In this document: positions 2,900 to 31,652 of the stretch, piece by piece
How the letters are laid out: every line of letters begins with the position of its first letter
How positions within the stretch are numbered: position 1 is the stretch's first letter
Origin: Megasphaera elsdenii DSM 20460
Lineage (GTDB): Bacteria > Bacillota > Negativicutes > Veillonellales > Megasphaeraceae
DNA: 32,000 nucleotides
Direction of reading: 5' to 3'
Assembly (NCBI RefSeq): GCF_003010495.1
Contig: NZ_CP027570.1
Location: 660,001-692,000 of the forward strand
Notes under the pieces: model-generated
Database searches by the model: none
What the model was told of the DNA's origin: nothing
Seen by the model: the letters and a program-made list of their open reading frames with translations, nothing else
Translations under genes and position numbers: made by a program

Positions 2900-2910
2900 G
2901 AGGGATACTT

Positions 2911-4329
2911 ATGTTGAACTTTTTTGATGAAAATCCGGCATATGAAAATCACGTATTATTCACCAATGGGGCAGGCCACTCTTTAACCTACAAAGACTGG
3001 TATACCCATAGCAGAAACTTAGAGGAAAAGCTTTCATCCCCAACAAGACAGTTAGCAGCTATCATCTGTCATAATACCATAGGGTCTGCCTTATCTTATC
3101 TCTGTTGCTTGCAAAATCGAATCGTCCCCTTACTCATCGATCACGACATGGACATAGAATTGCGTCAACGCCTGCTGTCCATTTATAAGCCTAATTATAT
3201 ATTCAAGCCTGTAGACGATGAAGTCGAACCTCTTTATACATTAAATGGATATGGCGTATATCAAGCAAATGATATAGCTCATAATATTCATTCCGATTTG
3301 GCGTTACTTCTGACAACGTCTGGCAGTACAGGCAGTCCCAAATTGGTCCGTCAAAGTTATACAAATATTCAATCCAATGCAGCGTCTATCGCACAATATT
3401 TAAAAATTACGGCACAAGACCATCCTATTTCTTCCTTGCCCATGCATTACACGTTTGGCCTTTCTGTCATCAATAGTCATGTACTATGCGGAGCCTGTGA
3501 ATGTCTGACAGAAGCAACTGTATTCGATAAAGAATTTTGGAATATTTGTCAAAATGACGAAATCACCTCTATTGCCGGTGTCCCCTTCACTTATGAATGT
3601 CTAAAGCGCATCGGCTTCATGGCCATGGATTTACCGAAATTAACGCTGATGATTCAAGCCGGTGGCCATTTATCAACACGCCTGCAAAAAGAATACCTGG
3701 AATTTGCCCATAAGACAGAGAAACGCTTTATCGTCATGTATGGTCAAACAGAAGCCACTGCACGCATGTCTTATCTGCCCTTTGATATGGGACTGAAAAA
3801 AATAGGCAGTATCGGCATTGCCATTCCCGGCGGGACCTTCCATATTATGGAAGATGAAAAAACGGAAATCACCCAGCCACATGTTACGGGCGAACTTTGC
3901 TATGAAGGACCCAATGTTACATTAGGTTATGCCCATTGTGCTGAAGATTTGGCCTTAGGCGACATGCGTCATGGCCGATTATATACGGGTGATATGGCCT
4001 ATTTCGATGAAGATGGATACTACTATATTGCGGGACGCAAAAAGCGCTTCATCAAAGTAATGGGTAAGCGTGTGAATATGGATGAAATGGAAGAACTGCT
4101 AAAAAGTGCTTTTGATTTCAGTGATTTCGCCTGTGTGGGTCAAGATGATGATCTGCACGTATTTATGACCAATAATACCCATCAATCTGAAGTTGAAGAC
4201 TTCCTTATAGAAAAGACAGGTTTGCATCTCCGTTGTTTTACAATCCATCACATTAAACAAATTCCTAAAAACACTTCTGGCAAAACACAGTATCCTGAAT
4301 TAAAGGCCTTGGCCGAAAAACAGGGGTGA
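2911..4329 (+). CDS. AMP-binding (adenylate-forming) enzyme, stand-alone
   Basis: Adenylation core motifs LLLTTSGSTGSPKLV, YGQTEA, YTGDMAYFDEDGYYYIAGRKKRFIKVMGKRV and C-terminal PKNTSGK. An AGGAGGG RBS ends 8 nt before the ATG. Confidence 0.85.
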   Translation: MLNFFDENPAYENHVLFTNGAGHSLTYKDWYTHSRNLEEKLSSPTRQLAAIICHNTIGSALSYLCCLQNRIVPLLIDHDMDIELRQRLLSIYKPNYIFKPVDDEVEPLYTLNGYGVYQANDIAHNIHSDLALLLTTSGSTGSPKLVRQSYTNIQSNAASIAQYLKITAQDHPISSLPMHYTFGLSVINSHVLCGACECLTEATVFDKEFWNICQNDEITSIAGVPFTYECLKRIGFMAMDLPKLTLMIQAGGHLSTRLQKEYLEFAHKTEKRFIVMYGQTEATARMSYLPFDMGLKKIGSIGIAIPGGTFHIMEDEKTEITQPHVTGELCYEGPNVTLGYAHCAEDLALGDMRHGRLYTGDMAYFDEDGYYYIAGRKKRFIKVMGKRVNMDEMEELLKSAFDFSDFACVGQDDDLHVFMTNNTHQSEVEDFLIEKTGLHLRCFTIHHIKQIPKNTSGKTQYPELKALAEKQG

Positions 4330-4334
4330 TAAAA

Positions 4335-5612
4335 ATGGATGCAGGTATCACCATTTCACAAGAACAATTACAAAAACTTTCCATAAATCAAATTCAATCC
4401 TTGCATATTCTTTCTCTCTCAGCTGAATCCCTACGCGATTTATTGCAAAAAGAGTCTGAAGAGAATCCTTTTATGGATTATAGCCCTAGCACAAGCAATA
4501 ATATTTCCTCTGATGGCTCTACTTCGTTTTTAAACTTTATAGCTGCTCCTGAAGAAAGAAGTGTGAAGCAATTTATTTTAGAGCAAGTAAATCTATCTAA
4601 TTTCACGACTCCCCAGTGGGCTCTTTTCTCCTATTTAACCGATTATGTCGATACACGGGGCTATTTAACTATTACAGAAGAAGAACTCAAAAAAAAGATT
4701 CCTTTACCCGACGGCCTTTTTGCTTCTTGTTTACGAATACTCCAAAACTTAGATCCTGCCGGAATTGGAGCTACATCTTTGACAAACTGTTTAAAATTAC
4801 AACTGCAACGAAAAAAACAGCTTACCCCTTTATTAGAAAACTTAATTGAAAACCATTTAAATGAAATAGGTGCACAAGATATATCTCACATCTGTCAATC
4901 ATTAAAAACGCCCAAAAAACAAATTTTGGCCGCTATCCGACTGATTAAGCGCTTAAATCCAGCTCCTTTAGAAGGATTATTTGAAACAAATTCAACCTAT
5001 ATCGTCCCTGACGTAATTATTAGGTTCATGCCTACAGGACATGAAATCATTTTAAATGACGCTTGGGTTGCCTCTTACTCCATGAGCGATTATTATGTCC
5101 GCATGATGCATACAACAACAGATGAAAGCGTAAAAAAATATTTCAAGACAAAATACACCCGCTGTCGCTTGTTATTTTATAATATAGAACGCCGACGCCA
5201 AACACTGTACAATCTGACCGATGTGATTTGCCATCATCAGCAAGCCTACCTGCAAAATCATGGCCCTTTAGCTCCAATGACACTGGCAGATATTGCTAAG
5301 GAAATCGGAGTGCATCCTTCAACAATTAGTCGGTCTATAAAGAACAAATATTTACAAACGCCATACACGACACTTTCTTTTAAAAATTTATTCCAACGCC
5401 CTTTTCCCAAGACGGGAAAAGATATTTCTAAAGAAGCATTAAAAAAAGAATTGTGTTGCCTGATAAAATCAGAAGACACGAAGCATCCCTATAGTGATGC
5501 TCAACTGACAAACATCCTTTCAACCCAATTTGGTCGAAGTTTTTCCCGTCGTCTTATCCAGAAATATCGGATACAATTGCATATTCCCAACTCCTATGAA
5601 CGCTACGGATAA
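4335..5612 (+). CDS. rpoN: RNA polymerase sigma-54 factor (425 aa)
   Basis: Gln/Leu-rich region I ending in EENPFMD, HTH TLADIAKEIGVHPSTISRSIKNKY, and RpoN box SRRLIQKYRIQLHIP. ATG 4335 lies 5 nt after the upstream TGA, preceded by an AGGGGTG RBS. The tracked GTG 4326 is less likely. Confidence 0.85.
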   Translation: MDAGITISQEQLQKLSINQIQSLHILSLSAESLRDLLQKESEENPFMDYSPSTSNNISSDGSTSFLNFIAAPEERSVKQFILEQVNLSNFTTPQWALFSYLTDYVDTRGYLTITEEELKKKIPLPDGLFASCLRILQNLDPAGIGATSLTNCLKLQLQRKKQLTPLLENLIENHLNEIGAQDISHICQSLKTPKKQILAAIRLIKRLNPAPLEGLFETNSTYIVPDVIIRFMPTGHEIILNDAWVASYSMSDYYVRMMHTTTDESVKKYFKTKYTRCRLLFYNIERRRQTLYNLTDVICHHQQAYLQNHGPLAPMTLADIAKEIGVHPSTISRSIKNKYLQTPYTTLSFKNLFQRPFPKTGKDISKEALKKELCCLIKSEDTKHPYSDAQLTNILSTQFGRSFSRRLIQKYRIQLHIPNSYERYG

Positions 5613-5655
5613 AGCATGTGTTTTTTATATATTTAACATACACCTTGCGATATTC

Positions 5656-5684
5656 TTGTTTACATAATTAAAAATTGTTATAAT
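5656..5684 (+). promoter_or_regulatory. sigma-70-type promoter for the activator gene (TTGTTT-17 nt-TATAAT, TG-extended)
   Basis: -35 TTGTTT at 5656-5661, a 17-nt spacer ending in TGT, and -10 TATAAT at 5679-5684. Read directly from the sequence; no experimental support. Confidence 0.4.
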
Positions 5685-5720
5685 TTTTTACATATGCATA
5701 TATGTAATATTTATTTCGCA

Positions 5721-5738
5721 GAGGCCCGTCAGGGCCTC
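5721..5738 (+). promoter_or_regulatory. GC-rich leader hairpin GAGGCCC-GTCA-GGGCCTC
   Basis: Perfect 7-bp stem with a 4-nt loop, followed by ATTGCTTCTTTG. It lies between the predicted promoter and the RBS of the bEBP gene. Confidence 0.35.
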
Positions 5739-5771
5739 ATTGCTTCTTTGTCGTAAAGGAGGACCATCTTT

Positions 5772-7235
5772 ATGACGAATGTAACAAAAATTTTTTCGAC
5801 ACTGTCCGAGGCCAGCGAACGGCTCAATGCCATTATTGAACATTCTTTTGATGGCATTTTCATTACCGATGCAAAGGCCAATGTTATCCGTATCAATCAT
5901 GCCTACGAAGTCATTACCGGCTTAAAGAAAGAAGAAGTCCTCGGAAAAAACATGGCTGATCTCGTGCGCAATAAATTAATCTCAGAATCAGGCTCCCTGC
6001 AAGTTATTAAAACGAAACAACCAGTAACACTGCAACAATGCTTTCGTTCAGGAAAGGAAGCGTTAGTAACTAGTTCTCCTATTTTTGACGCCGACGGCAA
6101 TTTCATTATGATTGTCACCAATGTTCGGGATTTGACAGAAATTTATAATTTAAAAGCTGTCGTCCAAGAAAAAACGGCTGCCATGGATCGCCTAGCTATG
6201 GAACTGGAACATTTACAAACAACGTCAGAAGACAATCAGGAAATCATCGCTAAGGATGAAACAACCTTAGCAGCCATGCTGCTTGCCAACCGCGTAGCAT
6301 CCATGGACACGACGGTTATTCTACTAGGAGAAACGGGTGTCGGGAAAGAAGTGATGGCCCGATATATTTTCCAGCACAGCCATCGCGCAAAAAATAGTTT
6401 CATTAAAGTAAACTGTGGGGCTATCCCAGAAAATCTGATTGAAAGTGAACTCTTCGGGTATGAAGGTGGCGCTTTTACAGGCGCCAATAAAAACGGAAAA
6501 ATCGGTCTCTTTGAATTGGCTAATAAAGGCACCTTATTTCTCGATGAAATTGGGGAACTTCCCAAAGACATGCAAGTAAAATTGCTACGTGTTCTTCAAG
6601 AACAAGAAATCTTGCGCGTCGGTGGTACGAAGCCCGTAAAAATTGATGTCCGCATCATTGCCGCTACGAACCGAAATTTAGAAGAAATGGTAAAAGACGG
6701 TACTTTCCGTGAGGATTTATATTACAGGCTCACTGTCTTTCCCATTTCCATTCCGCCATTGCGGATGCGAAAAAAGGATATCATCCCCTTGGCGCTCTCT
6801 TTCCTGGAAAAGCTGAATCAAAAATATCAACTGAAAAAGTATTTTACCGACTTATCCATGCAGCTTCTCCACGAATACGACTGGCCTGGTAACATCCGCG
6901 AATTAAAGAACATCGTCGAAAGAGCAATTATTATAAGTCCTTCAGATGCAATAAAGCCGGAAGATCTCCATATACATTCTGCTAGTAAACCAATCGTAAT
7001 TATAAAAGAAAATGATTTTAGCGATAATACAAAAAATTCTTTACCGCCCTCCCCCGAATTTCCGATAAATTTAAAAAATACTCTCGAAAAAATAGAGTAT
7101 ACCTACATGGTCCAAGCCTATAAATTCTTTGGCAACGTGCGCGATGCTGCCAAAAATTTGGGACTCACACCTTCTACCTTTGTACGGAAACGCAAGCAAT
7201 ATCAGCAAAACAATACGGACCCTGAAAGGATGTGA
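5772..7235 (+). CDS. sigma-54-dependent transcriptional activator (PAS sensor, AAA+, Fis-type HTH)
   Basis: N-terminal PAS-like domain, Walker A GETGVGKE, sigma-54 contact loop [23 protein letters not shown], and C-terminal HTH ([17 protein letters not shown]). An AAAGGAGG RBS precedes ATG 5772. Confidence 0.9.
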
Positions 7236-7240
7236 GCAAT

Positions 7241-8275
7241 ATGACAACTCTGGAAGAAATCCGTAAAAAAGCCCGTGCTAAAATGAAAGGTTGTTATGTC
7301 TGTCCTGATTGTGATGGTAATGCCTGTTCCGGGATGATTCCTGGTTATGGCGGTATGCGGACAGGCCAATCTTTTCGTAATAATCGATTGTCCTTCCAAA
7401 AATATGGTCTCCTATCTCATCTCTTATCGGCTAGCAAAAACCCAGATACGACGTGTTCTATTTTTGGAAAAACGTTATCCATGCCCATTCTTATCGCCCC
7501 AGTCAGCGGCTATGTCCATAATGGAAAAATAGAAGGAAATCCGGAAGAAAAAGAATATGAATATCTCTTTTCTATGACTGAAGGAGCTGCAAAAGCAGGA
7601 ACACTGGTATTTACCGGCGATAGTGGCCATGCTTATATGTATGAAGCTGGGATTGCCGCTTCAAAGAAATATCCAAAACACGTAATTCCGACAATAAAGC
7701 CGCGAAAAAATCAAAAAATCATTGAGAAAGCACGACTAGCTGAACAATCAGACGCATTCGCAGTGGCAAACGACGTTGATGCCGTAACCTCCGCGAATAT
7801 GCGATTTTTTGGCCAGCCCTTAGAAGTAGAGCGGCTAAAAAATCTAAAATACATTATTAGTTCCATTCATCTCCCTTTCATTGTAAAAGGCATTATGTCC
7901 CCTGATGAAGCCTTGCTTTGCCTAGAAGCAGGCGCCAAAGGAATTGTTATCAGCAATCACGGAGGCCGCATACTCGATGGTATGGCTAGTCCTTTATCTG
8001 TCCTGCCCGAAATTTCTGCCGTTGTAAAAAACAGATTAACAATTTTCATAGATGGCGGAATCCGACACGGTGAAGACGTCCTAAAAGCATTGGCCCTAGG
8101 AGCTGACGCAGTATTAATCGGTCGACCTGCTGCTATTGCAAATATAGGTGGATACGCAGAAGGCGTTACATTGCTCCTCGATACCTTAAAGCAAGAATTA
8201 CAAGATGCTATGACAATAACAGGCATTCCTGATTTGCAACACATATCGTCTAATATTTTACAAAAAATAAAATAA
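7241..8275 (+). CDS. FMN-dependent alpha-hydroxy-acid oxidase/dehydrogenase family protein
   Basis: TIM-barrel FMN_dh-like motifs (GIVISNHGGR, IFIDGGIRHGEDVLKALALGADAVLIGRP). The N-terminus has a CYVCPDCDGNAC patch. ATG 7241 with a GAAAGGA RBS is preferred over the tracked GTG 7232, which overlaps the bEBP stop. Confidence 0.75.
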   Translation: MTTLEEIRKKARAKMKGCYVCPDCDGNACSGMIPGYGGMRTGQSFRNNRLSFQKYGLLSHLLSASKNPDTTCSIFGKTLSMPILIAPVSGYVHNGKIEGNPEEKEYEYLFSMTEGAAKAGTLVFTGDSGHAYMYEAGIAASKKYPKHVIPTIKPRKNQKIIEKARLAEQSDAFAVANDVDAVTSANMRFFGQPLEVERLKNLKYIISSIHLPFIVKGIMSPDEALLCLEAGAKGIVISNHGGRILDGMASPLSVLPEISAVVKNRLTIFIDGGIRHGEDVLKALALGADAVLIGRPAAIANIGGYAEGVTLLLDTLKQELQDAMTITGIPDLQHISSNILQKIK

Positions 8276-8420
8276 CAATCCCAAGAAACTTTAAACACTA
8301 TCTCGACATATTGCCTCAAATATGCAAATCTACCCAATTTTGCTAAAATAAAGGCAATCAATAGTCTATACAATTTGACTTTTTGCCTTGTATGCCATTC
8401 CCCTTTTAGGAGGTTTTATC

Positions 8421-9224
8421 ATGGATTATTTAAGCAATATGTTTTCTTTGAAAGGTAATGTCGCCCTCATTACGGGCGGTTCTTACGGCATCGGTTTTGC
8501 CATTGCCAAAGCGTTAGCCCGTGCTGGCGCCGTGATTGCCTTCAACTGCCGCAGTCAGGAACATCTGGATCAGGCCATGAAGGATTATGAAAAAGAAGAC
8601 ATTGAAGCTCACGGCTATCTTTGCGATGTCACTGATGAGCTCCACGTGCAAAAATTGGTCAGTGAAATAGAAAAGACGTTGGGGACTATCGACATCCTCG
8701 TCAATAACGCCGGTATCATCAAACGTATCCCCATGTGTGACATGACGACGGAAGAATTCCGCCAGGTCGTCGATATCGACTTAGTCGGTTCGTTCATCGT
8801 ATCCAAGGCAGTCATTCCCGGTATGATAAAAAAAGGCCACGGCAAAATCATCAATATCTGCTCTATGATGAGCGAATTAGGACGTGAAACCGTGTCGGCT
8901 TACGCCGCAGCCAAAGGCGGTCTGAAAATGTTGACCCGTAATATCTGTTCCGAATTCGGCGGCGCCAATATCCAGTGCAATGGCATTGGCCCTGGCTACA
9001 TCGCAACGCCCCAAACGGCCCCGCTGCGTGAGAAACAGCCTGATGGCTCCCGCCATCCTTTCGACCAGTTCATCGTCTCTAAGACGCCAGCTGGCCGCTG
9101 GGGAACGACAGAAGACCTCGAAGGCCCGGCTGTTTTCTTAGCTTCCCATGCTTCGGACTTCGTAAACGGACACATTTTATACGTCGACGGCGGTATCCTA
9201 GCCTACATCGGAAAGCAACCGTAA
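8421..9224 (+). CDS. SDR-family oxidoreductase, gluconate 5-dehydrogenase-like
   Basis: MDYLSNMFSLKGNVALITGGSYGIGFAIA, NNAG and YAAAKGG (YxxxK). An AGGAGG RBS lies 7 nt before ATG 8421; the tracked start 8388 is an upstream TTG extension. Confidence 0.85.
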   Translation: MDYLSNMFSLKGNVALITGGSYGIGFAIAKALARAGAVIAFNCRSQEHLDQAMKDYEKEDIEAHGYLCDVTDELHVQKLVSEIEKTLGTIDILVNNAGIIKRIPMCDMTTEEFRQVVDIDLVGSFIVSKAVIPGMIKKGHGKIINICSMMSELGRETVSAYAAAKGGLKMLTRNICSEFGGANIQCNGIGPGYIATPQTAPLREKQPDGSRHPFDQFIVSKTPAGRWGTTEDLEGPAVFLASHASDFVNGHILYVDGGILAYIGKQP

Positions 9225-10919: not shown

Positions 10920-12239
10920 CTATGCTCCGGCAACTTCTTTATTTTTGTTCAACATGATGTGCAAGACTTCGCAATCTGTCTGCTGCATACCATTAGATGC
11001 CAAGAGGCCTACGTTTCGGATACATTCATCTGCCGTATCGGCGACGAGCCCATCTGTACCTTCTACGCGGATACCGGCTAAGGCCATGAGGACCGAACGA
11101 TAAGCGATTTCCGCTGCCGAAGCGACTTTCATGGCACAGCTATCGGCGGCACCATCACAGACCATACCGACGATGCCGCCATTCATAGATGAAATAGCTT
11201 TGCAAATAGTCTGATACGGTGTCTTTCGGTCGAGGAGCCAAGCCATGCCAGCCGCTGCTCCCATGGCAGCCGTAACGGTCGCGCAAAAGGCAGACAACTT
11301 GGGTAAATAGCTGTGCGCATAGATAGCGACCATACTGGCCAAAGCCAGGGCCCGGACGCGTTCTTCGCCAGAGGCTTTGATATGGTCAGCGACAACTGTT
11401 ACTGGCTCAGATACGGTGATGCCCTGATTCCCGGAACCAGAATTGGTCATGGCCGGACAGGCAGCGCCACCCATGCGAGCGTCTGAAGCGGCCACTGTAC
11501 GGACTTGGATTTCACGAGCCAAATCGCCTGCCAACAGGCCCTCTTTGATGCTCTTTTCCATGGTGCAGCCAATGCGCAGGCCATATTTCCCCGTCAGACC
11601 TTCTTTAGACAAGGCATCATTTAAATTTTCTGCATTCTTGATGAATTGGATATTGGCAAGGGGAATATTTTCAGCAAATTCCAAAATATCTTTGATGGAA
11701 AGGGACTGCAAAAAAGTGATTTTATCGGCTTCACTATCATTACAGCTCGCTTTTTTTTCAAAAATAACCTGTCCATCTTTTTCGATTAAGACAACGTTCG
11801 TATGGTTATCGACGATGACGGCGCGGACATGATGGCTTTCTCCATAGACATTGGCTTCCGAATAAAGGATATGCTTTGTCGTTTCATTGACACCAACGGT
11901 GACTTTGCCGTCAGCTACCATTTGTTTGCCTTGGGCTACCACATCAGGCGTCAAGGATTTCAGGACCTGGAGACCTGCGTTAGCATCGCCGCCCAGGGCA
12001 CCAACAGCAGCAGCAATAGCCAATCCCGGCATGCCGGTGCCTGGAACCATAACGCCCATCCCATTTTTCATCAAATTAGCGGAAACAAAGGCTTTGACAG
12101 CTTGTACGGGTTCTCCCAATTCTTTCGCCGCCGTAGCCGCTGCAAAAGCCAGGGAAATCGGTTCCGTACATCCCGTAGCCGGTTTGATATCTTGCTTCAT
12201 GATTTCAATCATTTTATTCCACATAGTACATGTTTCCAT
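10920..12239 (-). CDS. cyuA: UPF0597/YhaM-family L-cysteine desulfidase-like protein (serine dehydratase alpha-like)
   Basis: The N-terminus WNKMIEIMKQDIKPATGCTEPISLAFAAATAA resembles E. coli YhaM/CyuA. The protein is Gly/Ala-rich with a TNSGSGNQG motif. An AGGAG RBS lies 7 nt before ATG 12239; the tracked start 12248 is GTG. Confidence 0.75.
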   Translation of the reverse strand: METCTMWNKMIEIMKQDIKPATGCTEPISLAFAAATAAKELGEPVQAVKAFVSANLMKNGMGVMVPGTGMPGLAIAAAVGALGGDANAGLQVLKSLTPDVVAQGKQMVADGKVTVGVNETTKHILYSEANVYGESHHVRAVIVDNHTNVVLIEKDGQVIFEKKASCNDSEADKITFLQSLSIKDILEFAENIPLANIQFIKNAENLNDALSKEGLTGKYGLRIGCTMEKSIKEGLLAGDLAREIQVRTVAASDARMGGAACPAMTNSGSGNQGITVSEPVTVVADHIKASGEERVRALALASMVAIYAHSYLPKLSAFCATVTAAMGAAAGMAWLLDRKTPYQTICKAISSMNGGIVGMVCDGAADSCAMKVASAAEIAYRSVLMALAGIRVEGTDGLVADTADECIRNVGLLASNGMQQTDCEVLHIMLNKNKEVAGA

Positions 12240-12288
12240 TATTATCACTCCTAAAAAAAATCAATCTATAAAATAATCCGTTATAGAC

Positions 12289-13626
12289 TTACGAAAAAGC
12301 CAGGAACGGTGAGATAATTAACAAGATGCCCGTCGCAATGATGAGATATAACGAAACGCCTTTCAAGTCATGCAAGCGCGGCACCCGGTAGACGAGATAA
12401 GCCGGAATCAGGCAGCCAATCATGCCAAAGACAGGGCTGCAAATTGAAGTAAAGCTCAAAACGGGAGCATTGAGGATAATGGCACCCCACGACACGAGAA
12501 CAGCAAAGACCAGGATACCCAAGGAAACGGCACGTGCATTAATCTTATCTTCTGGCATAATGCGTTTCAAGCAGTTCATGGCAATGCCGCGGCAGGCTTC
12601 GCGGAAACCCAGGAAGACGCCGAAGAAGGCCGTAACGACAGCAAAAATATTTAGAATCAAACTCATGATCTTAATGGATGTGCCGGGAATCCCCTGGGCA
12701 GCCAATGCTAAAGCAGAAATATTGTTTTCATAAGCCATAACAGCTTGGTCATGGCCCATAGCCAAGTTGAACGAAATAGCATAGAAAAATACGGTGACAA
12801 AGAGCACGCCAAAGGCGATATTCATGGCCCGCAAAGCCTTGTACCGGGCAACTTCAATCGACTTATTATGAGAACGATAGGAAATGACCATCGGGCTCAA
12901 GCTCTGTAAAAATAAAATAGATGTCAGCGTAAAAGGCAGCATGATGATAGTCTGCTTGATGAGATAGCCAAAATCGGGAAAACTACCTATATTCGCTAAA
13001 TTCCAATGCTGGACCATAATCATACCCAAAACAGCTACGACGCACAGCTTCGTCAAGACCATTAGCGTAGAAATCTTGAAGAGTACTTTTTCGCCACGAG
13101 AAGCAATGGCTACGAGGGCACAAATAATGACCAACCCGTATAACGGATTTTTAGCCAGTGAATGGTCCGTCACGCCAAAGGTGACTAAGAAGGAAGCACT
13201 GTCATTATTGATGGCCGTCGAATAGACGAATACCCAGATAATGAGCATCAGGAAGTAAAGAAGACCTAAGAACAGGCCCCAGTTCTTGCCCAAGTAGTTG
13301 CCAATGACACTAGGATAATCTTCACATCTTTCAGATTTTGCCAGAGTATTAATGAATAATCGCTGGAAAAGGTACATAGCCGGATAACCGATAATAGATG
13401 ACAAGAGATAAATCCAAATCCCTGCCAAGCCTACCTGTACCGGTAAAAATACGATGCCTGCACCGATAGCCATGCCGATACTCATGATGACCCAGCCCCA
13501 GTCGGTACTGTCAAACTTGACGGCTTCTTTCCACTGGGCCTTGGTCATACCCGCTTTTTCCCATCGGGTCAACTTTTCTTTCCCCAAAGTTTGTCCTTTA
13601 TCAGGACACTGAACTGTCTGTTCCAT
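12289..13626 (-). CDS. HAAAP-family amino-acid permease (YhaO/CyuP, SdaC, TdcC-like)
   Basis: About 11 hydrophobic segments and an N-terminal WGWVIMSIGMAIGAGIVFLP motif typical of hydroxy/aromatic amino acid permeases. It sits directly upstream of the cyuA-like gene, as in E. coli cyuPA. An AAGGAG RBS precedes the start. Confidence 0.7.
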   Translation of the reverse strand: MEQTVQCPDKGQTLGKEKLTRWEKAGMTKAQWKEAVKFDSTDWGWVIMSIGMAIGAGIVFLPVQVGLAGIWIYLLSSIIGYPAMYLFQRLFINTLAKSERCEDYPSVIGNYLGKNWGLFLGLLYFLMLIIWVFVYSTAINNDSASFLVTFGVTDHSLAKNPLYGLVIICALVAIASRGEKVLFKISTLMVLTKLCVVAVLGMIMVQHWNLANIGSFPDFGYLIKQTIIMLPFTLTSILFLQSLSPMVISYRSHNKSIEVARYKALRAMNIAFGVLFVTVFFYAISFNLAMGHDQAVMAYENNISALALAAQGIPGTSIKIMSLILNIFAVVTAFFGVFLGFREACRGIAMNCLKRIMPEDKINARAVSLGILVFAVLVSWGAIILNAPVLSFTSICSPVFGMIGCLIPAYLVYRVPRLHDLKGVSLYLIIATGILLIISPFLAFS

Positions 13627-15650: not shown

Positions 15651-15727
15651 ACCCTATGTCTTTTCCGTCTTAGCCTTTTCACTTCGTCTACGGTATAATG
15701 GTAGATAACAGAGGAGGTGGATTCCAG

Positions 15728-16984
15728 ATGTACTTGACGCAATCGAATGTCATTCGTGGCTTGTCGAAACAAGAGTATACGATGCTCCGGGAAATGTGCC
15801 AATACAGCAACAACCTGTACAATGTAGCGGTCTATACGATTCGGCAACATTACTTCGATACCCAACAATTCTTGCGCTATGAAAAAAATTGCCATGTCTG
15901 CAAGGAAAATGAAAATTACAGATTATTGCAGGCTGGTGTTTCTCAACAGATATTGAAAGTAGCCGACCGCAGTTTTCGTTCTTTTTTCAGGCTTTTGCAG
16001 AAAGTCAAGTCAGGTGACTATGGTTCAAAGGCTGTCCGCCTGCCGTACTATCGTGAAAAAGGGGGTCTCTTCAATCTCATCTTGTCGACGAATGCCATTA
16101 CCATTAAGAATGGCTTCCTAACCGTGCCGATGAGCCGTGAATATATGAAACGCCATAACGGTCATCGGATTCGGATTCCTGTTCCTGACAGGCTGAAAGA
16201 GAAGAAAATCAAGGAAGTCCGCATCTGTCCCATGTATGGCGGACGGTATTTCAAGATTCAGTATTGTTACTTGGAGAATCCAGAACTGGTGAAAACCTCG
16301 CTGGATCGGGTTCTGGCTATCGATTTAGGCTTGGACAATCTGGCCGCTTGCATTACCAATACAGGGACGTCGTTCCTCATGGACGGTCGTAAACTCAAAT
16401 CTATCAACCAGTATTGGAATAAACGCAAAGCCAGACTCCAAAGCATTGCCGCCAAGCAGGGCCAGAAGACAACGAACCAGCTCTGTCAGTTAGCGAAAAA
16501 ACGCAATTGCCGGATGCAGGATATCCTTCGCAAGACAGCCCGCTATATCCTCGATTTTTGCATCAGTCATCAGATAGGGACCATTGTCTGCGGCTATAAT
16601 CGCGATTTCAAACGAGGACTGAAACTAGGTAAAGTGACAAATCAGCACTTCACTCAAATCAATTTGAGCTATTTGCGCAATACCTTGAAACACCTGTGTG
16701 AACGCTACGGGATAACCTATCTGGAACAAGAAGAATCGTATACTTCTCAGGCCAGCTGCCTGGATTTGGACGATATTCCCGTATACCAGCCGGATGCCCC
16801 CTATACAGGAACGTTCAGCGGGAAACGAGTCCGGCGCGGCCTGTACCGTTTCGCCGACGGCAGGACAGCTAATGCCGACATCAACGGCGCCGCCAACATA
16901 CTCCGCAAAAGTAAGCAGAACTTCGATTTCGAGGGACTGTGTAAGGGGCTTTTGGACAGCCCTTTGAGAATAAGGCTATCCTGA
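15728..16984 (+). CDS. tnpB: TnpB-family RNA-guided endonuclease-like protein (418 aa), variant lacking a zinc ribbon
   Basis: RuvC-I VLAIDLGLDNLA, EESYTSQASC, RGLYRFADGRTANADINGAANILRK (RuvC-III). A GGAGG RBS lies 10 nt before ATG 15728 and TATAAT is at 15694-15699. The tracked start 15698 is an upstream extension. Confidence 0.85.
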   Translation: MYLTQSNVIRGLSKQEYTMLREMCQYSNNLYNVAVYTIRQHYFDTQQFLRYEKNCHVCKENENYRLLQAGVSQQILKVADRSFRSFFRLLQKVKSGDYGSKAVRLPYYREKGGLFNLILSTNAITIKNGFLTVPMSREYMKRHNGHRIRIPVPDRLKEKKIKEVRICPMYGGRYFKIQYCYLENPELVKTSLDRVLAIDLGLDNLAACITNTGTSFLMDGRKLKSINQYWNKRKARLQSIAAKQGQKTTNQLCQLAKKRNCRMQDILRKTARYILDFCISHQIGTIVCGYNRDFKRGLKLGKVTNQHFTQINLSYLRNTLKHLCERYGITYLEQEESYTSQASCLDLDDIPVYQPDAPYTGTFSGKRVRRGLYRFADGRTANADINGAANILRKSKQNFDFEGLCKGLLDSPLRIRLS

Positions 16985-17135: not shown

Positions 17136-17489
17136 ATGCCGAGACCACCGCGGTGCCGGCGGGTTTGTTCATTGCCGGCGGCTTCTGTCTTTGGACCTGT
17201 AGACGGAGGACAATCAGCAGATGCCATTATCATGGGCATTGATGAGTATGAAGTCATCCGCCTCATCGACTGGGTCGGCTTGACGCAGGAACAGTGCGCC
17301 GCTCAGATCAATGTGGCGCGCACGACGGTAACCGGCATTTATGATTCGGCCCGACGCAAACTGGCCGATGCCCTCATCCATGGCAAACGTCTCGTCATCG
17401 AAGGCGGCCATATCCAAGTTTGTGAACGTTCCGGTACGTGCTGTCATGCCTGCTGTCACGCCGGAAAAAAAGAATACAAAGGAGAATGA
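17136..17489 (+). CDS. DUF134 (UPF0251) family putative DNA-binding protein with Cys-rich tail
   Basis: MPRPPRCRRVC..P....FGP N-terminus, a sigma-70 region-4-like HTH (LTQEQCAAQINVARTTVTGIYDSARRKLA), and the C-terminal CERSGTCCHACCH. Confidence 0.8.
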   Translation: MPRPPRCRRVCSLPAASVFGPVDGGQSADAIIMGIDEYEVIRLIDWVGLTQEQCAAQINVARTTVTGIYDSARRKLADALIHGKRLVIEGGHIQVCERSGTCCHACCHAGKKEYKGE

Positions 17490-17494
17490 TCCCA

Positions 17495-18331
17495 ATGAGT
17501 GAAAATTGTACACACGATTGTTCCAGCTGCGGCAGCTCCTGCGCTGAACGCACCCAGCCCCAGAGCCTGCAGGCTGCCCCCCATGCCGGCTCGCACATCA
17601 AGCATGTCATCGCTGTTGTCAGCGGCAAAGGCGGCGTCGGTAAATCCCTGGTAACGTCCCTTATGGCTGTTGAAATGCAGCGCCGCGGCTTCAAGACGGC
17701 TATCCTCGACGCCGATATCACAGGCCCGTCGATTCCTAAGGTCTTCGGCCTGACGGACCATGCGACAGGCGACGAAAACGGTATCTATCCGGTTACGACC
17801 AAGACGGGCATCAAAGTCATGTCCATGAACCTCTTGCTCGAAGACGCTGCCGCTCCGGTCGTATGGCGCGGCCCGGTCATTTCCGGTGCTGTAAAACAGT
17901 TCTGGACTGACGTCATCTGGGGCGACATCGACTACATGTTCGTCGACATGCCGCCGGGAACGGGTGACGTTCCGCTGACAGTCTTCCAGTCCCTACCCAT
18001 GGACGGCATCCTGGTCGTCACATCGCCGCAGGAACTCGTTTCCATGATTGTCGAAAAAGCATTGAACATGTCGGAAATGATGCACGTCCCGGTCCTGGGC
18101 CTCATCGAAAACATGAGCTATTTCGAATGTCCTCACTGCCACGAAAAATTAGCCATCTTCGGTCAGAGCCATGTCGAAGAATCGGCACAGAAATACGATA
18201 TTCCCCATACGGCAAAACTGCCGATCGACCCGGAATTTGCATCCCATTGCGATAAAGGTGACATCGAAGGCTACGAAGCCAGCTACATGGCGGACACAGC
18301 CTCCTTCCTGCAAGGCGTGTTAGGGAAATAA
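17495..18331 (+). CDS. Mrp/NBP35 (ApbC-like) Fe-S cluster carrier ATPase
   Basis: N-terminal CTHDCSSCGSSC, deviant Walker A VVSGKGGVGKS, DADITGPS, VDMPPGTGD and CPHC. ATG 17495 is 10 nt from GGAG; ATG 17486, overlapping the upstream stop, is the alternative. Confidence 0.85.
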   Translation: MSENCTHDCSSCGSSCAERTQPQSLQAAPHAGSHIKHVIAVVSGKGGVGKSLVTSLMAVEMQRRGFKTAILDADITGPSIPKVFGLTDHATGDENGIYPVTTKTGIKVMSMNLLLEDAAAPVVWRGPVISGAVKQFWTDVIWGDIDYMFVDMPPGTGDVPLTVFQSLPMDGILVVTSPQELVSMIVEKALNMSEMMHVPVLGLIENMSYFECPHCHEKLAIFGQSHVEESAQKYDIPHTAKLPIDPEFASHCDKGDIEGYEASYMADTASFLQGVLGK

Positions 18332-25798: not shown

Positions 25799-25932
25799 CA
25801 TCCATGCGCTGAAACACAAATTGCTATAAAACGGCTTAGTAGTGCCGCTTACAAAGAAGTGTACACCATTGGATTTTCATGCCATAATATGGTAAACTAT
25901 AAGAATACTAAAGAGAGGTGAAATATCACATT

Positions 25933-26874
25933 ATGGATTTATTCCAATTGACATACTTCATCGAAGTCGCTCATAAAAAAAGCTTCACCAAAGCTTCTAA
26001 ATCACTGCATATCAGCCAGCCATCGATCAGCAAGGGAATCAAGGCCCTGGAAGAACACTGGGGCGTCCAGCTCTTCGACCGCAAGGGAAAAAATGTAGAG
26101 CTCACGGAAACGGGGTCCTATTTGCTCCCCAAAATCGAAGAGCTCATCAAGGGATTCACCCAGCTGAACGAAGAAATGGAATCGCCCCAGCTGCTCAATG
26201 CCGGCAAATTATCCGTCGGCGTACCACCTATGATCGGGTCATCGGTCATCGCACCGTTCATCGCCCATTTCATCAATAAATATCCTAAAATCGAGCTGGA
26301 AATGAAAGAAGTCGGTTCTCAGGACGTCGTATCCGCCATCGACGACGGCCTCATCCAGGTCGGTTTCGTCGCCCTGCCGATTACGACGGAAATACCGTAT
26401 GAATTTTTCATTTTCCATGAAGAACCTCTCGACGTCGTTCTCTGGCCGGATCATCCCCTGGCCTCTCGGCCGTCGCTGACCTTGTCGGACATCAAAGATG
26501 AAACCTTCGTCTTCTATCCGAATGGCTTCTCCCTGAATCCCTACCTGCGCTCGGCTTTCCAGGAAATCATGGCCCATCCGAAGATTGTCTGCCGTTCCAG
26601 TAACTGGGACTTCCTGGCTCAGATGGTCGCCGGCCGCCTGGGCATTTCCCTGATGCCGCACACCATCTGTCAACGGATTTCACCGGACCTTGCCGTTTCC
26701 GTCCCCCTCGTCCAGCCCCATCTCTATTGGACCCTGGCCCTGATATGGAAAAGCAAGGGCTATTTATCGCACCCATCGCGGACATGGGTACAGTCGTTCA
26801 AAGATTATTTCAAGGATGCCAATGCGGCCATCCAGAGTGCCGCCTCCGAACATCCTTACCTTTCAGAGGAGTAG
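25933..26874 (+). CDS. LysR-family transcriptional regulator
   Basis: MDLFQLTYFIEVAHKKSFTKASKSLHISQPSISKGIKALEE HTH plus a LysR substrate-binding-like C-terminal domain. ATG 25933 is preferred over the tracked 25918. Confidence 0.85.
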   Translation: MDLFQLTYFIEVAHKKSFTKASKSLHISQPSISKGIKALEEHWGVQLFDRKGKNVELTETGSYLLPKIEELIKGFTQLNEEMESPQLLNAGKLSVGVPPMIGSSVIAPFIAHFINKYPKIELEMKEVGSQDVVSAIDDGLIQVGFVALPITTEIPYEFFIFHEEPLDVVLWPDHPLASRPSLTLSDIKDETFVFYPNGFSLNPYLRSAFQEIMAHPKIVCRSSNWDFLAQMVAGRLGISLMPHTICQRISPDLAVSVPLVQPHLYWTLALIWKSKGYLSHPSRTWVQSFKDYFKDANAAIQSAASEHPYLSEE

Positions 26875-26880
26875 ATCACG

Positions 26881-27654
26881 ATGTCTAAATCATTGCTATC
26901 GGCAGCAGAAAAAAACGAAATTTTTTCACATCAGCGCGATAACGGTCCCTTCAGCGCCCTGGCCCTGGAAACGGCCTGCCTGAACTACCTGGACCGGTTG
27001 AACCGCATCTTCCGCGATCCCCTGGCAGCTGCAGCGGACCGCCGGGCAGCCCTCAAAAAGGGGATGGCCCTGGAACAAAAGCTTTTCGACTATATCCGCC
27101 ACGAAACGCCGATCAGCTATTTTGACAGCGATTTCCGCAATCAGACGAAACAATATATCCGCATGCGGGAAATCTACGTCGACGCCGTGAATTTCACCTT
27201 CAAGCGCCATCGCTTCCGCTTCGTCCTGGACTTATTGCGCCTGTACAGCGAAGACCCGTGCCAGATCCTGCCGGAACGGGATATCTTCAAGGAAAAATGG
27301 GAACAGGTCCTGCTCTACGACTACCTGCTCCTCGACATGGGCCAGAAGAACACCGAGGACATCGGCCGCGAAGCCGTATCCAACGGATATCATGAATGTG
27401 ACTATACCCTGGAAATCGAAGAAGTGTGGAAACAGCCCATGAAAGCCGTTCCCCGCTCCCATTTCCGTTACGTCAAAGCGGCCCTGCCCTACAGTCAGGG
27501 CGCCCGGGCCATCACCACGTGGATGAAAGACCATGCTAACGACCTTGCCCCGGCCCTGTGGGTCGTCGATACGAAGGCCATCGAAGCCTTGAGAAAGGGC
27601 CCGGACCTCATCGTCACCGACGAAGATATCGCGATTATTGAAAAAACGTTTTGA
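26881..27654 (+). CDS. hypothetical protein (257 aa), no recognisable domain
   Basis: GAGGAG lies 9 nt before the ATG and there is a 6-nt gap after lysR. Codon usage matches host genes. No motif was recognised. Confidence 0.55.
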   Translation: MSKSLLSAAEKNEIFSHQRDNGPFSALALETACLNYLDRLNRIFRDPLAAAADRRAALKKGMALEQKLFDYIRHETPISYFDSDFRNQTKQYIRMREIYVDAVNFTFKRHRFRFVLDLLRLYSEDPCQILPERDIFKEKWEQVLLYDYLLLDMGQKNTEDIGREAVSNGYHECDYTLEIEEVWKQPMKAVPRSHFRYVKAALPYSQGARAITTWMKDHANDLAPALWVVDTKAIEALRKGPDLIVTDEDIAIIEKTF

Positions 27655-28772: not shown

Positions 28773-28809
28773 AAAAAGGCGCTGTCTTCATGCGACAGCG
28801 CCTTTTTTT
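28773..28809 (-). terminator. intrinsic terminator after the GGGtGRT gene
   Basis: GGCGCTGTC-TTCATGC-GACAGCGCC (28778-28802), flanked by A5 and T7. Confidence 0.7.
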
Positions 28810-28821
28810 ACATACGTAATA

Positions 28822-29832
28822 TTAGAATTTGCCAGCTTTAGCAGCGCCTTCTACGGCGACAGCTACGGCTACGGATGCACCAACCATGGGGTTGTTGCCC
28901 ATGCCGAGGAAGCCCATCATTTCTACGTGAGCCGGTACGGACGAAGAGCCAGCGAACTGAGCATCGCTGTGCATACGGCCCATGGTATCGGTCATGCCGT
29001 AAGAAGCAGGGCCGGCAGCCATATTATCCGGATGGAGTGTACGGCCTGTGCCGCCGCCGGATGCAACGGAGAAGTATTTCTTGCCCATTTCGATGCATTC
29101 TTTCTTATATGTACCTGCAACGGGGTGCTGGAAACGGGTCGGGTTGGTGGAGTTCCCCGTAATGGAAACGTCGACGCCTTCGTGGTGCATGATAGCGACG
29201 CCTTCGCGGACATCGTCGGCACCGAAGCAGCGAACGTTAGCCCGTTCGCTCTTGGAGTAGGGGATTTCACGGACAATGTTCAATTCGCCCGTTTTGTAAT
29301 CGAACTGGGTCTGAACATAGGTGAAGCCGTTGATACGGGAAATGATCTGGGCAGCGTCTTTGCCGAGACCATTGAGGATGACGCGGAGAGGCACTTTACG
29401 AGCCTTGTTGGCATTGCGGACGATGCCGATAGCGCCTTCAGCAGCGGCGAAGGATTCGTGACCTGCCAGGAAGCAGAAGCATTTCGTTTCGTCCTGCAAG
29501 AGCATAGCTGCCAGGTTGCCGTGGCCGCGGCCGACTTTGCGGTCTTCAGCGACGGAGCCGGGAATGCAGAAGGACTGGAGGCCGATGCCGATGGCTTTAG
29601 CCGCTTCTACAGCCGTCCGTGCATTGGTCTTGATAGCGATGGCAGCGCCAACGGTGTAGGCCCAGCCAGCATTTTCAAATGCAATCGGCTGTACGTCTTT
29701 GACGATTTTATAGGGATCCAGGCCGGCAGCTGCACAGATATCGCGACATTCTTCAACGCTGCCGATACCGTATTCTTTCAGTACGCCGAGGATCTTATCA
29801 ATTCTTCTGTCGTAGCTTTCAAATAATTCCAT
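28822..29832 (-). CDS. GGGtGRT family protein (unknown function)
   Basis: Contains the eponymous motif FSVASGGGTGRTLHPDNMAAGPASYGMTD. At 336 aa it matches the family size as I recall it. Confidence 0.8.
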   Translation of the reverse strand: MELFESYDRRIDKILGVLKEYGIGSVEECRDICAAAGLDPYKIVKDVQPIAFENAGWAYTVGAAIAIKTNARTAVEAAKAIGIGLQSFCIPGSVAEDRKVGRGHGNLAAMLLQDETKCFCFLAGHESFAAAEGAIGIVRNANKARKVPLRVILNGLGKDAAQIISRINGFTYVQTQFDYKTGELNIVREIPYSKSERANVRCFGADDVREGVAIMHHEGVDVSITGNSTNPTRFQHPVAGTYKKECIEMGKKYFSVASGGGTGRTLHPDNMAAGPASYGMTDTMGRMHSDAQFAGSSSVPAHVEMMGFLGMGNNPMVGASVAVAVAVEGAAKAGKF

Positions 29833-29844
29833 GGTTTTGCCCTC

Positions 29845-30537
29845 CTATTGCTGTCTCGGATCGATATACGAAGCTGCTTCTTCAAAGCGGCCATAGTGGC
29901 CTTTTGCGTCTTCCATAGCTTTGGCCGGTTCGACGCCCTTCTTGATGGCTTCCATCATTTTGCCGAGGTGGATGAATTCATAGCCGATGACCTGGTTATC
30001 TTCATCGAGTGCCATGCGGGTAACATAGCCTTCGGTCATTTCCAGATACCGCGTGCCTTTCGCTTTCGTACCGAACATGGTACCGGTCTGGCTGCGCAGG
30101 CCTTTGCCGAGGTCGTCCAGGCTGGCGCCGATGGGGAGGCCGCCTTCGGAGAAGGCTGTCTGGGTACGGCCGTATACAATCTGGAGGAAGAGCTGGCGCA
30201 TAGCCACGTTGATAGCATCGCAGACCAAGTCTGTATTGAGGGCTTCAAGAAGCGTTTTGCCCGGAAGGATTTCCGAAGCCATAGCAGCAGAATGAGTCAT
30301 GCCGGAACAGCCGATGGTTTCAACGAGGGCTTCTTCAATGATGCCGTCTTTGACATTGAGTGTCAATTTGCAGGCACCCTGCTGCGGAGCACACCAGCCT
30401 ACGCCATGGGTCAAGCCGCTGACATCTTTGATTTCCTTTACCTGTACCCATTCGCCTTCTTCCGGAATCGGGGCCGGTCCGTGATATGCGCCTTTCGTGA
30501 CGGGACACATATTCTTAACTTCTGTTGAATATAACAT
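29845..30537 (-). CDS. NifU/IscU-N-terminal-like putative Fe-S scaffold protein
   Basis: IscU-like core GVGWCAPQQGACKLTLNVKDGIIEEALVETIGCSGMTHSAAMASEILPGKTLLEAL with three candidate ligand Cys, plus a ~100-aa C-terminal extension. It lies 12 nt upstream of the GGGtGRT gene. Confidence 0.65.
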   Translation of the reverse strand: MLYSTEVKNMCPVTKGAYHGPAPIPEEGEWVQVKEIKDVSGLTHGVGWCAPQQGACKLTLNVKDGIIEEALVETIGCSGMTHSAAMASEILPGKTLLEALNTDLVCDAINVAMRQLFLQIVYGRTQTAFSEGGLPIGASLDDLGKGLRSQTGTMFGTKAKGTRYLEMTEGYVTRMALDEDNQVIGYEFIHLGKMMEAIKKGVEPAKAMEDAKGHYGRFEEAASYIDPRQQ

Positions 30538-30591
30538 GTTCTCTTCACCCTTTCAAAATGTATGAGAAATAAAAAGCAGCACGTATAAGAC

Positions 30592-31461
30592 TCAGTCCTT
30601 CAACTGGTCGTATATCTGTGTGAATAAAGCGCGATACATGCTGCCTTTGCGCCACAAGAATGAAAATGCGTGCATGACGGAGAAATCCTTGACGACGATG
30701 CGTCGCAGCGTCCCGTCTGCCAGTTCTTTCTGAACTGATGTTTCATATAAAAATGCAATACCGCAGTCACGGCAGGCCAGTCCTTTGACGGCCGACAGGC
30801 TGCCCACTTCATAGCGGGCCGGGAAATGGTCCAGTGTGTAGCCCTGTTCTGCCAGCTTATGTTCCAAGATCCGGCGGGCGCCGGCATGGCGTTCGCGGAC
30901 GATGATCCGATAGCGCATGAGTTCTGACAGCGTCATTTCTTCCGGAGCTTCATAGCCCGTACCGCAGACAGCGACAATCGGTTCATTAGAAAATAAGAGC
31001 GATTCATAGCGTCCCTGGTCAAAAGAACTTTCGACAATGGCAAAATCAATGGCGCCATCGTCCAGGGACTGGAGCAGCTTTTCCGCATCCGCAATTTCCA
31101 TGCGAAGATTCATATCGTCATTATGCTTGAGCAAGTCAGCCAATTTATCGAGAATCCCCACGCCAGCTGTCGGCGTCGCCCCAAAGGTCAGGGAGCGATT
31201 GTGCTGCAGGTCGCGAAGATGCTCTTTTAAGATGGCATCGTCATGACTGATGGCAGTCACGGCATTCCAAAGGATGTGCCCAGCCTGGGTCAATTGCAGA
31301 TGTTTTCCCTTATAACTGAAAAGCTTGGTCCCGTATTCGCGTTCCAAGTAGCGAATATGCTGAGAAACGGCAGGCTGTGTGATGTGAAGTTCCGCAGCAG
31401 CCCGGGTATAATTCATGTGACGGCAAACGCACAAAAATGTATGGATACGAAAATCTAACAT
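30592..31461 (-). CDS. LysR-family transcriptional regulator
   Basis: MLDFRIHTFLCVCRHMNYTRAAAELHITQPAVSQHIRYLEREYG HTH. ATG 31461 is preferred over the tracked 31491. It has the same orientation as the NifU-like gene and sits 54 nt upstream of it. Confidence 0.85.
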   Translation of the reverse strand: MLDFRIHTFLCVCRHMNYTRAAAELHITQPAVSQHIRYLEREYGTKLFSYKGKHLQLTQAGHILWNAVTAISHDDAILKEHLRDLQHNRSLTFGATPTAGVGILDKLADLLKHNDDMNLRMEIADAEKLLQSLDDGAIDFAIVESSFDQGRYESLLFSNEPIVAVCGTGYEAPEEMTLSELMRYRIIVRERHAGARRILEHKLAEQGYTLDHFPARYEVGSLSAVKGLACRDCGIAFLYETSVQKELADGTLRRIVVKDFSVMHAFSFLWRKGSMYRALFTQIYDQLKD

Positions 31462-31652
31462 AGCACCCTTCCCTTTCTTTGCGTTTTCCATAAGATAATT
31501 TTATGATATTTCAAAATTTTTATCAAGAAAAAAGTGGGCATTTTTCGTATACGTATGGGACGTCTTTGCTCCCAGTATAGTTTTACCCCTGCCTTCATGA
31601 TATAATAGGACAAACGATTAACCTATTTTACGATAAGGAAGGATGGATTCTC

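Follow-up and report, generated by a model that had tools for sequence, protein, structure and literature searches.

Introduction

Enolase, the Mg-dependent TIM-barrel enzyme that interconverts 2-phosphoglycerate and phosphoenolpyruvate, has long been regarded as universal. Its absence was reported for Butyrivibrio proteoclasticus in 2010 and later for Prevotella and further bacteria of the rumen and gut, and the resulting gap in fermentation, which is unsolved and has no known substitute enzyme, has been stated as an open problem (PMC2914790, PMC11026938, PMC11187502). Here we describe a computational analysis of a 32,000-nucleotide (nt) stretch of the genome of Megasphaera elsdenii DSM 20460 (contig NZ_CP027570.1, positions 660,001 to 692,000 of the forward strand; hereafter the window, with positions numbered from its first letter), centred on two adjacent genes that encode an IscU/NifU-like protein of 230 amino acids (aa; 29845..30537, minus strand) and a GGGtGRT protein of 336 aa (28822..29832, minus strand). 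We rate as about even the chance that the two proteins are the subunits of an abundant, iron-dependent enzyme of lower glycolysis/gluconeogenesis, most likely an oxygen-labile iron-sulfur (Fe-S) 2-phosphoglycerate dehydratase. More tentatively, they may be the "missing enolase" of enolase-less gut and rumen anaerobes, that is, an oxygen-labile, fluoride-insensitive Fe-S 2-phosphoglycerate dehydratase in which a cluster subunit derived from IscU is joined by a second subunit with a new fold. Such an enzyme would catalyse the penultimate reaction of glycolysis, and the reverse reaction in gluconeogenesis, in these anaerobes, and in M. elsdenii it would work alongside enolase.

Two kinds of described system bear on this proposal in addition to enolase itself. 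In the Fe-S hydro-lyases (class I as opposed to class II fumarase, AcnB as opposed to AcnA, and the Fe-S L-serine dehydratase), an oxygen-labile cluster activates a beta-hydroxyl group beside a carboxylate, as is proposed here for the pair. The pair has no homology to any enzyme of this kind (aconitase, class I fumarase, SDH_alpha/beta, IlvD/Edd), and the cluster of these enzymes is in the catalytic polypeptide, whereas that of the pair is proposed to be on the IscU-like subunit. The second kind is the IscU scaffold, the fold of which normally serves cluster transfer.

The adjacency of GGGtGRT genes with "NifU" genes is already present in annotations and in two reports (PMC10434189; bioRxiv 10.64898/2026.04.10.717545), and Pfam has an entry for the GGGtGRT family. 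The pair itself is thus no discovery; its link with the loss of enolase is new here. No function has been assigned to the pair in the literature searched, and the initial annotation of this locus, which was made from the sequence alone, was right in describing the GGGtGRT family as one without an assigned activity, in that this literature contained no functional paper and no relative of solved structure was found.

Results

Co-occurrence of the pair with enolase loss

The genome of M. elsdenii DSM 20460 contains an intact canonical enolase gene (C1:734326-735174) besides the pair, and a Pfam scan found no homology to the enolase domain (PF00113) in either pair protein. When 36 genomes of the genus were compared, it was found that 16 have both the pair and enolase, 12 have the pair and no enolase, 8 have enolase and no pair, and none lacks both; every member of the genus that has lost enolase thus has the pair. 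The 12 enolase-less genomes include a closed genome (G010) and three at 96-99% completeness. At least four independent enolase losses were placed on well-supported branches of an iPGM gene tree, all of them within the pair-bearing part. The gene for this phosphoglycerate mutase is intact in 36/36 genomes of the genus, and therefore the gap is exactly one step, namely enolase. In the order's other genera, enolase was present and the pair absent in 25/25 genomes.

A second order was sampled as 201 genomes at 90% completeness or above, in which 67 genomes have both the pair and enolase, 75 have the pair only, 54 have enolase only, and 5 have neither (Fisher p = 7e-10, phylogeny not corrected). 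Enolase was missing in 53% of the carriers of the pair, whereas it was missing in 8.5% of the non-carriers, the latter being roughly what genome incompleteness gives. Where carriers in this order have kept an enolase, its sequence departs further from the family model (p = 1e-16). In a third order, the pair was present in 2/3 enolase-less genomes, compared to 2/18 controls. Among the loci that were fetched, 24 of the 50 pair-carrying genomes had no enolase, including three Oscillibacter isolates. Enolase frames with in-frame stops were found in the pair carriers G144, G243, G122, G186, G195, G206 and G103; in the second order, 6 of 6 such frames were within carriers, whereas 3 in the third order were within non-carriers, and therefore enolase decay is weak evidence.

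These counts were made without phylogenetic correction, and in the tree of the genus the carriers fall in clades separate from those of the non-carriers. The pair might have an unrelated function, such as redox or stress protection or iron handling, and the correlation with enolase loss would then reflect only shared ancestry and habitat, in strictly anaerobic gut and rumen lineages each of which can do without enolase for some other reason; the retention of enolase by many carriers would agree with this. We consider this highly unlikely, because the pattern was seen in three orders and with at least four independent losses in one genus, and because habitat does not explain the links described below, namely operons with pgk-tpiA-gpmI and apgM in distant lineages and fluoride riboswitches.

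Conservation of the gene pair

Relatives were sought by scanning one genome per species, which returned more than 590, and the 80 best loci were analysed, 75 of which included DNA upstream of the GGGtGRT gene. The NifU-like gene lay directly upstream of the GGGtGRT gene in all 75 informative loci (75/75), at full length and with 72-96% identity, which bears out the expectation that the two genes are conserved as neighbours. The clustering of all open reading frames (ORFs) in the 80 best loci revealed no other conserved neighbour of the pair, and a cysteine desulfurase was not among the conserved neighbours. The conserved unit is an obligate pair of two genes, not three.

The conservation of both proteins is extreme. 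Carriers in a different order, as defined by GTDB, encode GGGtGRT proteins 79-80% identical and NifU-like proteins 72-77% identical to those of the window. The titles of metagenome-assembled genomes proved unreliable in this respect, as an "Alistipes" genome (G076; locus L023, titled "Alistipes onderdonkii") belongs to the same GTDB order as Oscillibacter; therefore, claims of cross-phylum occurrence based on titles were discounted, and the cross-order identity was re-checked on the GTDB-defined order. In a database of 1.8 billion cluster representatives (50% identity), the GGGtGRT family consisted of essentially one full-length cluster plus fragments, and this set contained a single divergent member, with 53% identity.

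Genomic neighbourhood and fluoride riboswitches

In the Bacillus gapA operon, eno holds the slot after gpmI. In five of the loci, a co-directional operon of pgk, tpiA, gpmI, the NifU-like gene and the GGGtGRT gene was found, in which the pair takes the position after gpmI equivalent to that of eno. A phosphoglycerate mutase gene is also present near the most divergent member of the family (53% identity), the gene cluster of which consists of apgM, a 304-aa ORF, the NifU-like gene, the GGGtGRT gene, a 326-aa ORF and a His_Phos_1 gene; the apgM product passes the NF003104 cut-off. The two ORFs that flank this divergent pair (L099, 2401-3315 for the 304-aa and 5001-5981 for the 326-aa product) have no family assignment, and an IS66 transposase fragment is present at the end of the contig.

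Enolase is the classic fluoride target, and in some bacteria eno is under the control of a fluoride riboswitch. In two genomes (L045/G091 and G166), both of which also have enolase, the pair is immediately preceded by a fluoride riboswitch (RF01734). No fluoride riboswitch was found in the window or in 14 diverse loci; a regular-expression riboswitch screen of 65 loci gave no match, although this screen was too strict, in that it missed the riboswitch of L045. In L045 (6012-7330), a second fluoride riboswitch was seen just after the GGGtGRT gene and before a gene for a 396-aa membrane protein, such that the riboswitches bracket the pair; the membrane protein is taken to be an antiporter, as judged by eye.

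The GGGtGRT protein

The 336-aa protein matched PF14057 over essentially its full length (641.9 bits relative to a cut-off of 27, E = 2.3e-193, profile positions 1-326 of 327). The GGGTGRT motif, as read directly from the translation, consists of residues 259-265 (codons at 29038..29058, minus strand), and it was invariant in alignments of 26 and of 79 sequences. In the latter alignment, 192 of 336 columns were at least 98% conserved, and the most conserved block was residues 254-318, GGGTGRT...MTDTMGRMHSDAQFAGSSS. An AlphaFold2 model of the protein had a predicted template modelling score of 0.82 and was confident except for residues 258-299, within this most conserved block, where the predicted local distance difference test (pLDDT) value was below 50. 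A Foldseek search of the PDB with this model found no structural relative at E<=0.001, the best template modelling (TM) score being 0.25, and a profile search of the PDB for sequence relatives gave nothing significant (E>=0.8).

Three cysteines of this protein (Cys89, Cys118 and Cys202) are invariant in close members of the family, and the divergent member keeps only Cys202. Therefore, an Fe-S cluster, if there is one, is most likely on the IscU-like subunit. The GGGtGRT protein is proposed to be the catalytic or substrate-binding subunit. As a separate observation, one GGGtGRT protein of 494 aa (P0121) has an internal duplication of approximately its first 160 residues, which could have arisen in assembly or could be a genuine tandem duplication.

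The IscU-like protein

The 230-aa protein was initially annotated as having an IscU/NifU-like N-terminal half with three candidate cluster-ligand cysteines. An IscU-like core was indeed found at approximately residues 40-122, followed by a conserved C-terminal domain of 100 residues that IscU scaffolds lack, but the match to NifU_N (PF01592) was weak, covering residues 55-102 with 20.8 bits relative to a cut-off of 22. The number of cysteines had to be revised: four (C49, C56, C77 and C106; codons within 30220..30393, minus strand) were 100% conserved in 66 sequences and also in the partner of the divergent GGGtGRT protein, which has 54% identity, and these four are the candidate cluster ligands. 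Profile matches to IscU structures covered residues 49-104. The top Foldseek matches were all to IscU, with probabilities of 0.96-0.98 and target TM scores of 0.45-0.5, but with E>0.01 and a model pLDDT of 61; because of this poor model, the C-terminal domain was left without assignment.

The comparison with IscU scaffolds uses the IscU numbering, with the ligands Cys37, Cys63 and Cys106, the labilising Asp39, and about 13 residues, including the LPPVK motif, between "NTD" and Cys106. In alignments with IscU structures, Cys77 of the pair protein falls on Cys63, within a shared GCxx...S motif, and its Cys106, which comes after the "NTD" turn, stands in place of the IscU residue of the same number. 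The column of Cys37 is occupied by Gln53, with the new invariant residues Cys49 and Cys56 flanking it, and that of Asp39 by Ala55. Cys106 is only 3 residues past "NTD", beyond the HMMER alignment, such that there is no room for the LPPVK segment. With the Cys37 and Asp39 columns replaced and the space for LPPVK missing, the protein has the look of an IscU fold that has been remodelled, and not of a scaffold for transfer.

This comparison bears on another possibility, that the pair is dedicated to the assembly, delivery or repair of Fe-S clusters, with the IscU-like protein as scaffold and the GGGtGRT protein as its partner or client. Such a role would account for the IscU homology, the IscU-like fold and the invariant cysteines, and it would agree with the strong iron-dependent regulation reported for two species (see below). 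It is nonetheless distinctly unlikely: the protein scores far below the equivalog cut-offs of the IscU, NifU and SufU scaffold families (27.3 relative to 187.9 bits for TIGR03419, and 22 relative to 192.4 bits for TIGR01999), it has a replacement at the Cys37 position, and it appears, from the alignments with IscU structures, to lack both Asp39, the labilising residue, and the chaperone-binding LPPVK motif. Furthermore, neither a cysteine desulfurase nor any other conserved neighbour accompanies the pair, and cluster biogenesis leaves the links to enolase, phosphoglycerate mutase and fluoride unexplained. The initial annotation had offered a metallocluster enzyme or a maturation pair; an Fe-S enzyme agrees with the cysteines being invariant and with the iron regulation in published data, whereas a maturation pair has become less likely, as what was found suggests a particular function in metabolism, at the step of enolase, which that annotation had not foreseen.

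Published data on orthologues

Orthologues of the pair appear in published data sets for Bacteroides thetaiotaomicron (BT0173-BT0174) and Prevotella brevis GA33 (T433DRAFT_01350-01351). The GGGtGRT protein of the window belongs to the same family (PF14057) by its full-length hidden Markov model match. The locus tags of the orthologues are adjacent, and the two-gene order is the same in the carriers whose DNA was read, which are those of the different GTDB order. The iron regulation and high abundance described in this section belong to these orthologues, and the pair of the window differs from them in having a genus-specific LysR gene 54 nt upstream.

On iron depletion, expression of BT0173-74 was 11-13-fold lower, and eno (BT4572) was listed in an up-regulated group, at 2.0-7.7-fold, in the same table (PMC10434189). 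The Clostridium pasteurianum protein changed 2.2- to 7.1-fold, up or down, across iron-availability comparisons (PMC5395762). Transposon hits in BT0173-4 came from the same glucose-repression screen as hits in pfkA (bioRxiv 10.64898/2026.04.10.717545). In P. brevis GA33, enolase was reported to be missing from both the genome and the proteome (PMC10542786), and both the GGGtGRT protein and the NifU homologue encoded beside it were present in that proteome with 104-152 counts and 79-100% coverage (PMC10542786 supplement). In the M. elsdenii genome, codon bias placed the pair in the top 28-30% of genes and eno near the median, as estimated from the effective number of codons and the codon adaptation index, which are crude measures here for want of a proper reference set.

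Transcription signals and the LysR gene

The initial annotation had described three ORFs on the minus strand, their spacings, and a terminator, all of which are present. The GGGTGRT-bearing protein follows the 230-aa protein by 12 nt (29833..29844, minus strand), and this spacer, as read directly, contains the ribosome-binding site GGAGGG; the arrangement is one of operonic coupling between the NifU-like and GGGtGRT genes. The unit is closed by an intrinsic terminator at 28773..28802 (minus strand), identified by folding and a shuffle test, in which a 9-bp GC-rich stem (GGCGCUGUC/GACAGCGCC) at 28802..28773 is followed by a U-run. Its folding free energy was -23.9 kcal/mol (z = -6.1), and none of 200 shuffled sequences was equally stable; it was not among the matches of a consensus scan for signals.

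Upstream of the pair and on the same strand, a gene for a LysR-type regulator is present at 30592..31461 (minus strand), encoding 289 aa from the ATG at 31461, with the longest ORF beginning at 31491. The start at 31461 is likelier than that at 31491, because it has a ribosome-binding site and because homologues align from residue 5-11. The protein matched HTH_1 (69.8 bits) and LysR_substrate (103.9 bits), both above the Pfam cut-offs, and matched no named NCBIfam subfamily at its cut-off. Identity with the selenium-metabolism LysR (NF040786) was considered and rejected, with 138.5 bits relative to an equivalog cut-off of 250.

The idea that this gene forms a three-gene module with the pair did not hold. 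A block of the LysR, NifU-like, GGGtGRT and NlpC-P60 genes was syntenic in 11/11 further genomes of the genus, such that lysR adjoins the pair as part of a wider syntenic block, and in no locus outside the genus was a homologue of the window's LysR found next to the pair on its upstream side; among the 80 best loci, only the closest relative has one. Across these 11 genomes the LysR protein was 56-86% identical, whereas the pair proteins were 93-99% identical, meaning that the LysR protein evolves much faster. Membership of LysR in a conserved three-gene module is rejected in view of this genus-only adjacency and of the lack of a named subfamily that reaches its cut-off, and LysR is instead a genus-specific neighbour and a possible local regulator of the pair.

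The stop codon of lysR is separated from the start of the NifU-like gene by a gap of 54 nt in the window (30538..30591, minus strand), with a ribosome-binding site, GAAAGGGTGA, at 30554..30545, whereas it is 17 nt in two species of the genus. No usable promoter was found in the 54-nt gap, as the lone promoter-like match (30556..30528) has its -10 element inside the ORF, and the ribosome-binding site was the sole conserved element in 12 aligned upstream regions from the genus. Given the 17-nt gaps and the position of this -10 element, it is possible that the pair is co-transcribed with lysR or that a promoter resides within lysR. A candidate sigma-70-like promoter upstream of lysR (31498..31526, minus strand; TTGATA-17-TAAAAT) scored 10/12 in the consensus scan, in which the number of promoter-like matches was not above the chance expectation for the whole region.

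Other features of the window

Among the wider genes of the window (LuxC/LuxE, sigma-54, NagA/NagZ, DinB and others), no functional link to the pair was found. At 655-9224 (plus strand), genes for a LuxE-like acyl-protein synthetase, a LuxC-like acyl-CoA reductase and an AMP-binding enzyme are directly upstream of rpoN (sigma-54), and genes for a PAS/sigma-54 activator, an FMN-dependent dehydrogenase and an SDR protein come next; this may be a sigma-54-controlled cluster. A 442-aa SDH_alpha-family protein (serine dehydratase alpha-like) is encoded next to a 445-aa ORF without a Pfam match at 10920-13626 (minus strand). The 428-aa ORF at 15698-16984 (plus strand) contains OrfB_IS605 and Cas12f1-like TNB domains and is a TnpB-type IS200/IS605 element. 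An Fe-S P-loop NTPase of the Mrp/NUBPL type is encoded at 17438-18331 (plus strand), 10 kb from the pair and with no evidence of linkage to it. Lastly, a 257-aa ORF without a Pfam match (26881-27654, plus strand) directly follows a second LysR gene (25918-26874), an arrangement that recurs in three genomes of the genus with 42-53% identity.

Discussion

The analysis shows an obligate pairing of the two genes, extreme conservation, and a genomic link to enolase loss, to phosphoglycerate mutase genes and to fluoride riboswitches; we infer that the two proteins form a complex, bind an Fe-S cluster and act at the enolase step. In the proposed mechanism, the pair would interconvert 2-phosphoglycerate and phosphoenolpyruvate as a non-homologous analogue of enolase, catalysing the same reaction with two cysteine-rich, iron-regulated subunits that have neither sequence nor fold similarity to that enzyme. 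The IscU-derived subunit would carry the cluster on its invariant cysteines, and the GGGtGRT subunit would provide a pocket for the substrate, the phosphate of which would be bound by the glycine-rich GGGTGRT loop. By analogy with aconitase, class I fumarase and the Fe-S serine dehydratase, the cluster would activate the C3 hydroxyl as a leaving group; such dehydratase chemistry is plausible because the substrate has an alpha-proton beside the carboxylate and a beta-hydroxyl leaving group. The iron-dependent expression of the pair, with eno listed as rising reciprocally in B. thetaiotaomicron, resembles the behaviour of Fe-S and cluster-free isozyme pairs, in which the Fe-S form is used when iron is plentiful and the cluster-free isozyme otherwise. 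In M. elsdenii, the pair might be a second, conditional, iron-dependent and presumably fluoride-insensitive isozyme beside enolase, perhaps controlled by the LysR protein.

Several points weigh against this proposal. Enolase is kept by 16 of the 28 carriers in the genus, including M. elsdenii DSM 20460, and by 67 of the 142 carriers in the second order, and therefore the pair is not simply a replacement; conversely, the pair is missing from 5 of 80 enolase-less genomes in the second order and from 1 of 3 in the third. The co-occurrence statistics are phylogenetically uncorrected, and a paired sign test within the genus had no power. Searches with Pfam, Foldseek against the PDB and PDB profiles found no likeness in sequence or fold between the pair and any known dehydratase. 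An IscU fold with four cysteines is unusual for a catalytic cluster, and four cysteines leave no open iron site unless one of them is a non-ligand. In the published data, the rise of BT4572 eno was given with p = 0.144 (PMC10434189), and the phenotype of BT0173-4 was modest, at 2-fold (bioRxiv 10.64898/2026.04.10.717545). Extracts of the enolase-less B. proteoclasticus were reported by Kelly et al. 2010 to have only very low enolase activity in a coupled spectrophotometric assay (PMC2914790), which would count against the proposal if that strain carries the pair; a Methods passage of that paper makes no mention of anoxic handling. The proposed enolase-analogue activity itself, for which the evidence is indirect and comes from genomes and the literature, is judged to be evenly balanced between true and false.

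Some of these points would also fit a lower-glycolysis module that does not catalyse the enolase reaction, with the pair either carrying out another conversion of 2- or 3-phosphoglycerate or phosphoenolpyruvate in a bypass, or acting as a flux sensor or regulator that makes enolase dispensable. The same co-occurrence and neighbourhood evidence is equally compatible with such a role, and both the low enolase activity of the B316 extracts and the weak regulatory phenotype of the BT0173-4 mutants would fit it. We nevertheless regard it as unlikely, in that all members of the genus without enolase have retained phosphoglycerate mutase, which leaves a one-step gap, and the known bypasses (methylglyoxal and serine) yield no phosphoenolpyruvate, cost ATP and were reported not to be encoded (PMC11026938). 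For the sensor or regulator version in particular, an abundance at the level of ribosomal proteins fits a catalytic enzyme better.

If the pair is indeed an Fe-S enolase analogue, glycolysis would have, at one of its core steps, a second and non-homologous Fe-S solution, carried by a large proportion of the anaerobes of the gut; reconstructions of microbiome metabolism would have to be corrected, and a gap in glycolysis that is 15 years old would be addressed. It would further provide a mechanistic handle on the effects of fluoride and iron in gut fermentation, and catalysis would be added to the roles of IscU-like proteins. Should the proposed reaction be wrong, a protein that ranks with the most conserved and abundant ones in the metaproteomes of the gut and rumen would still lack a function.

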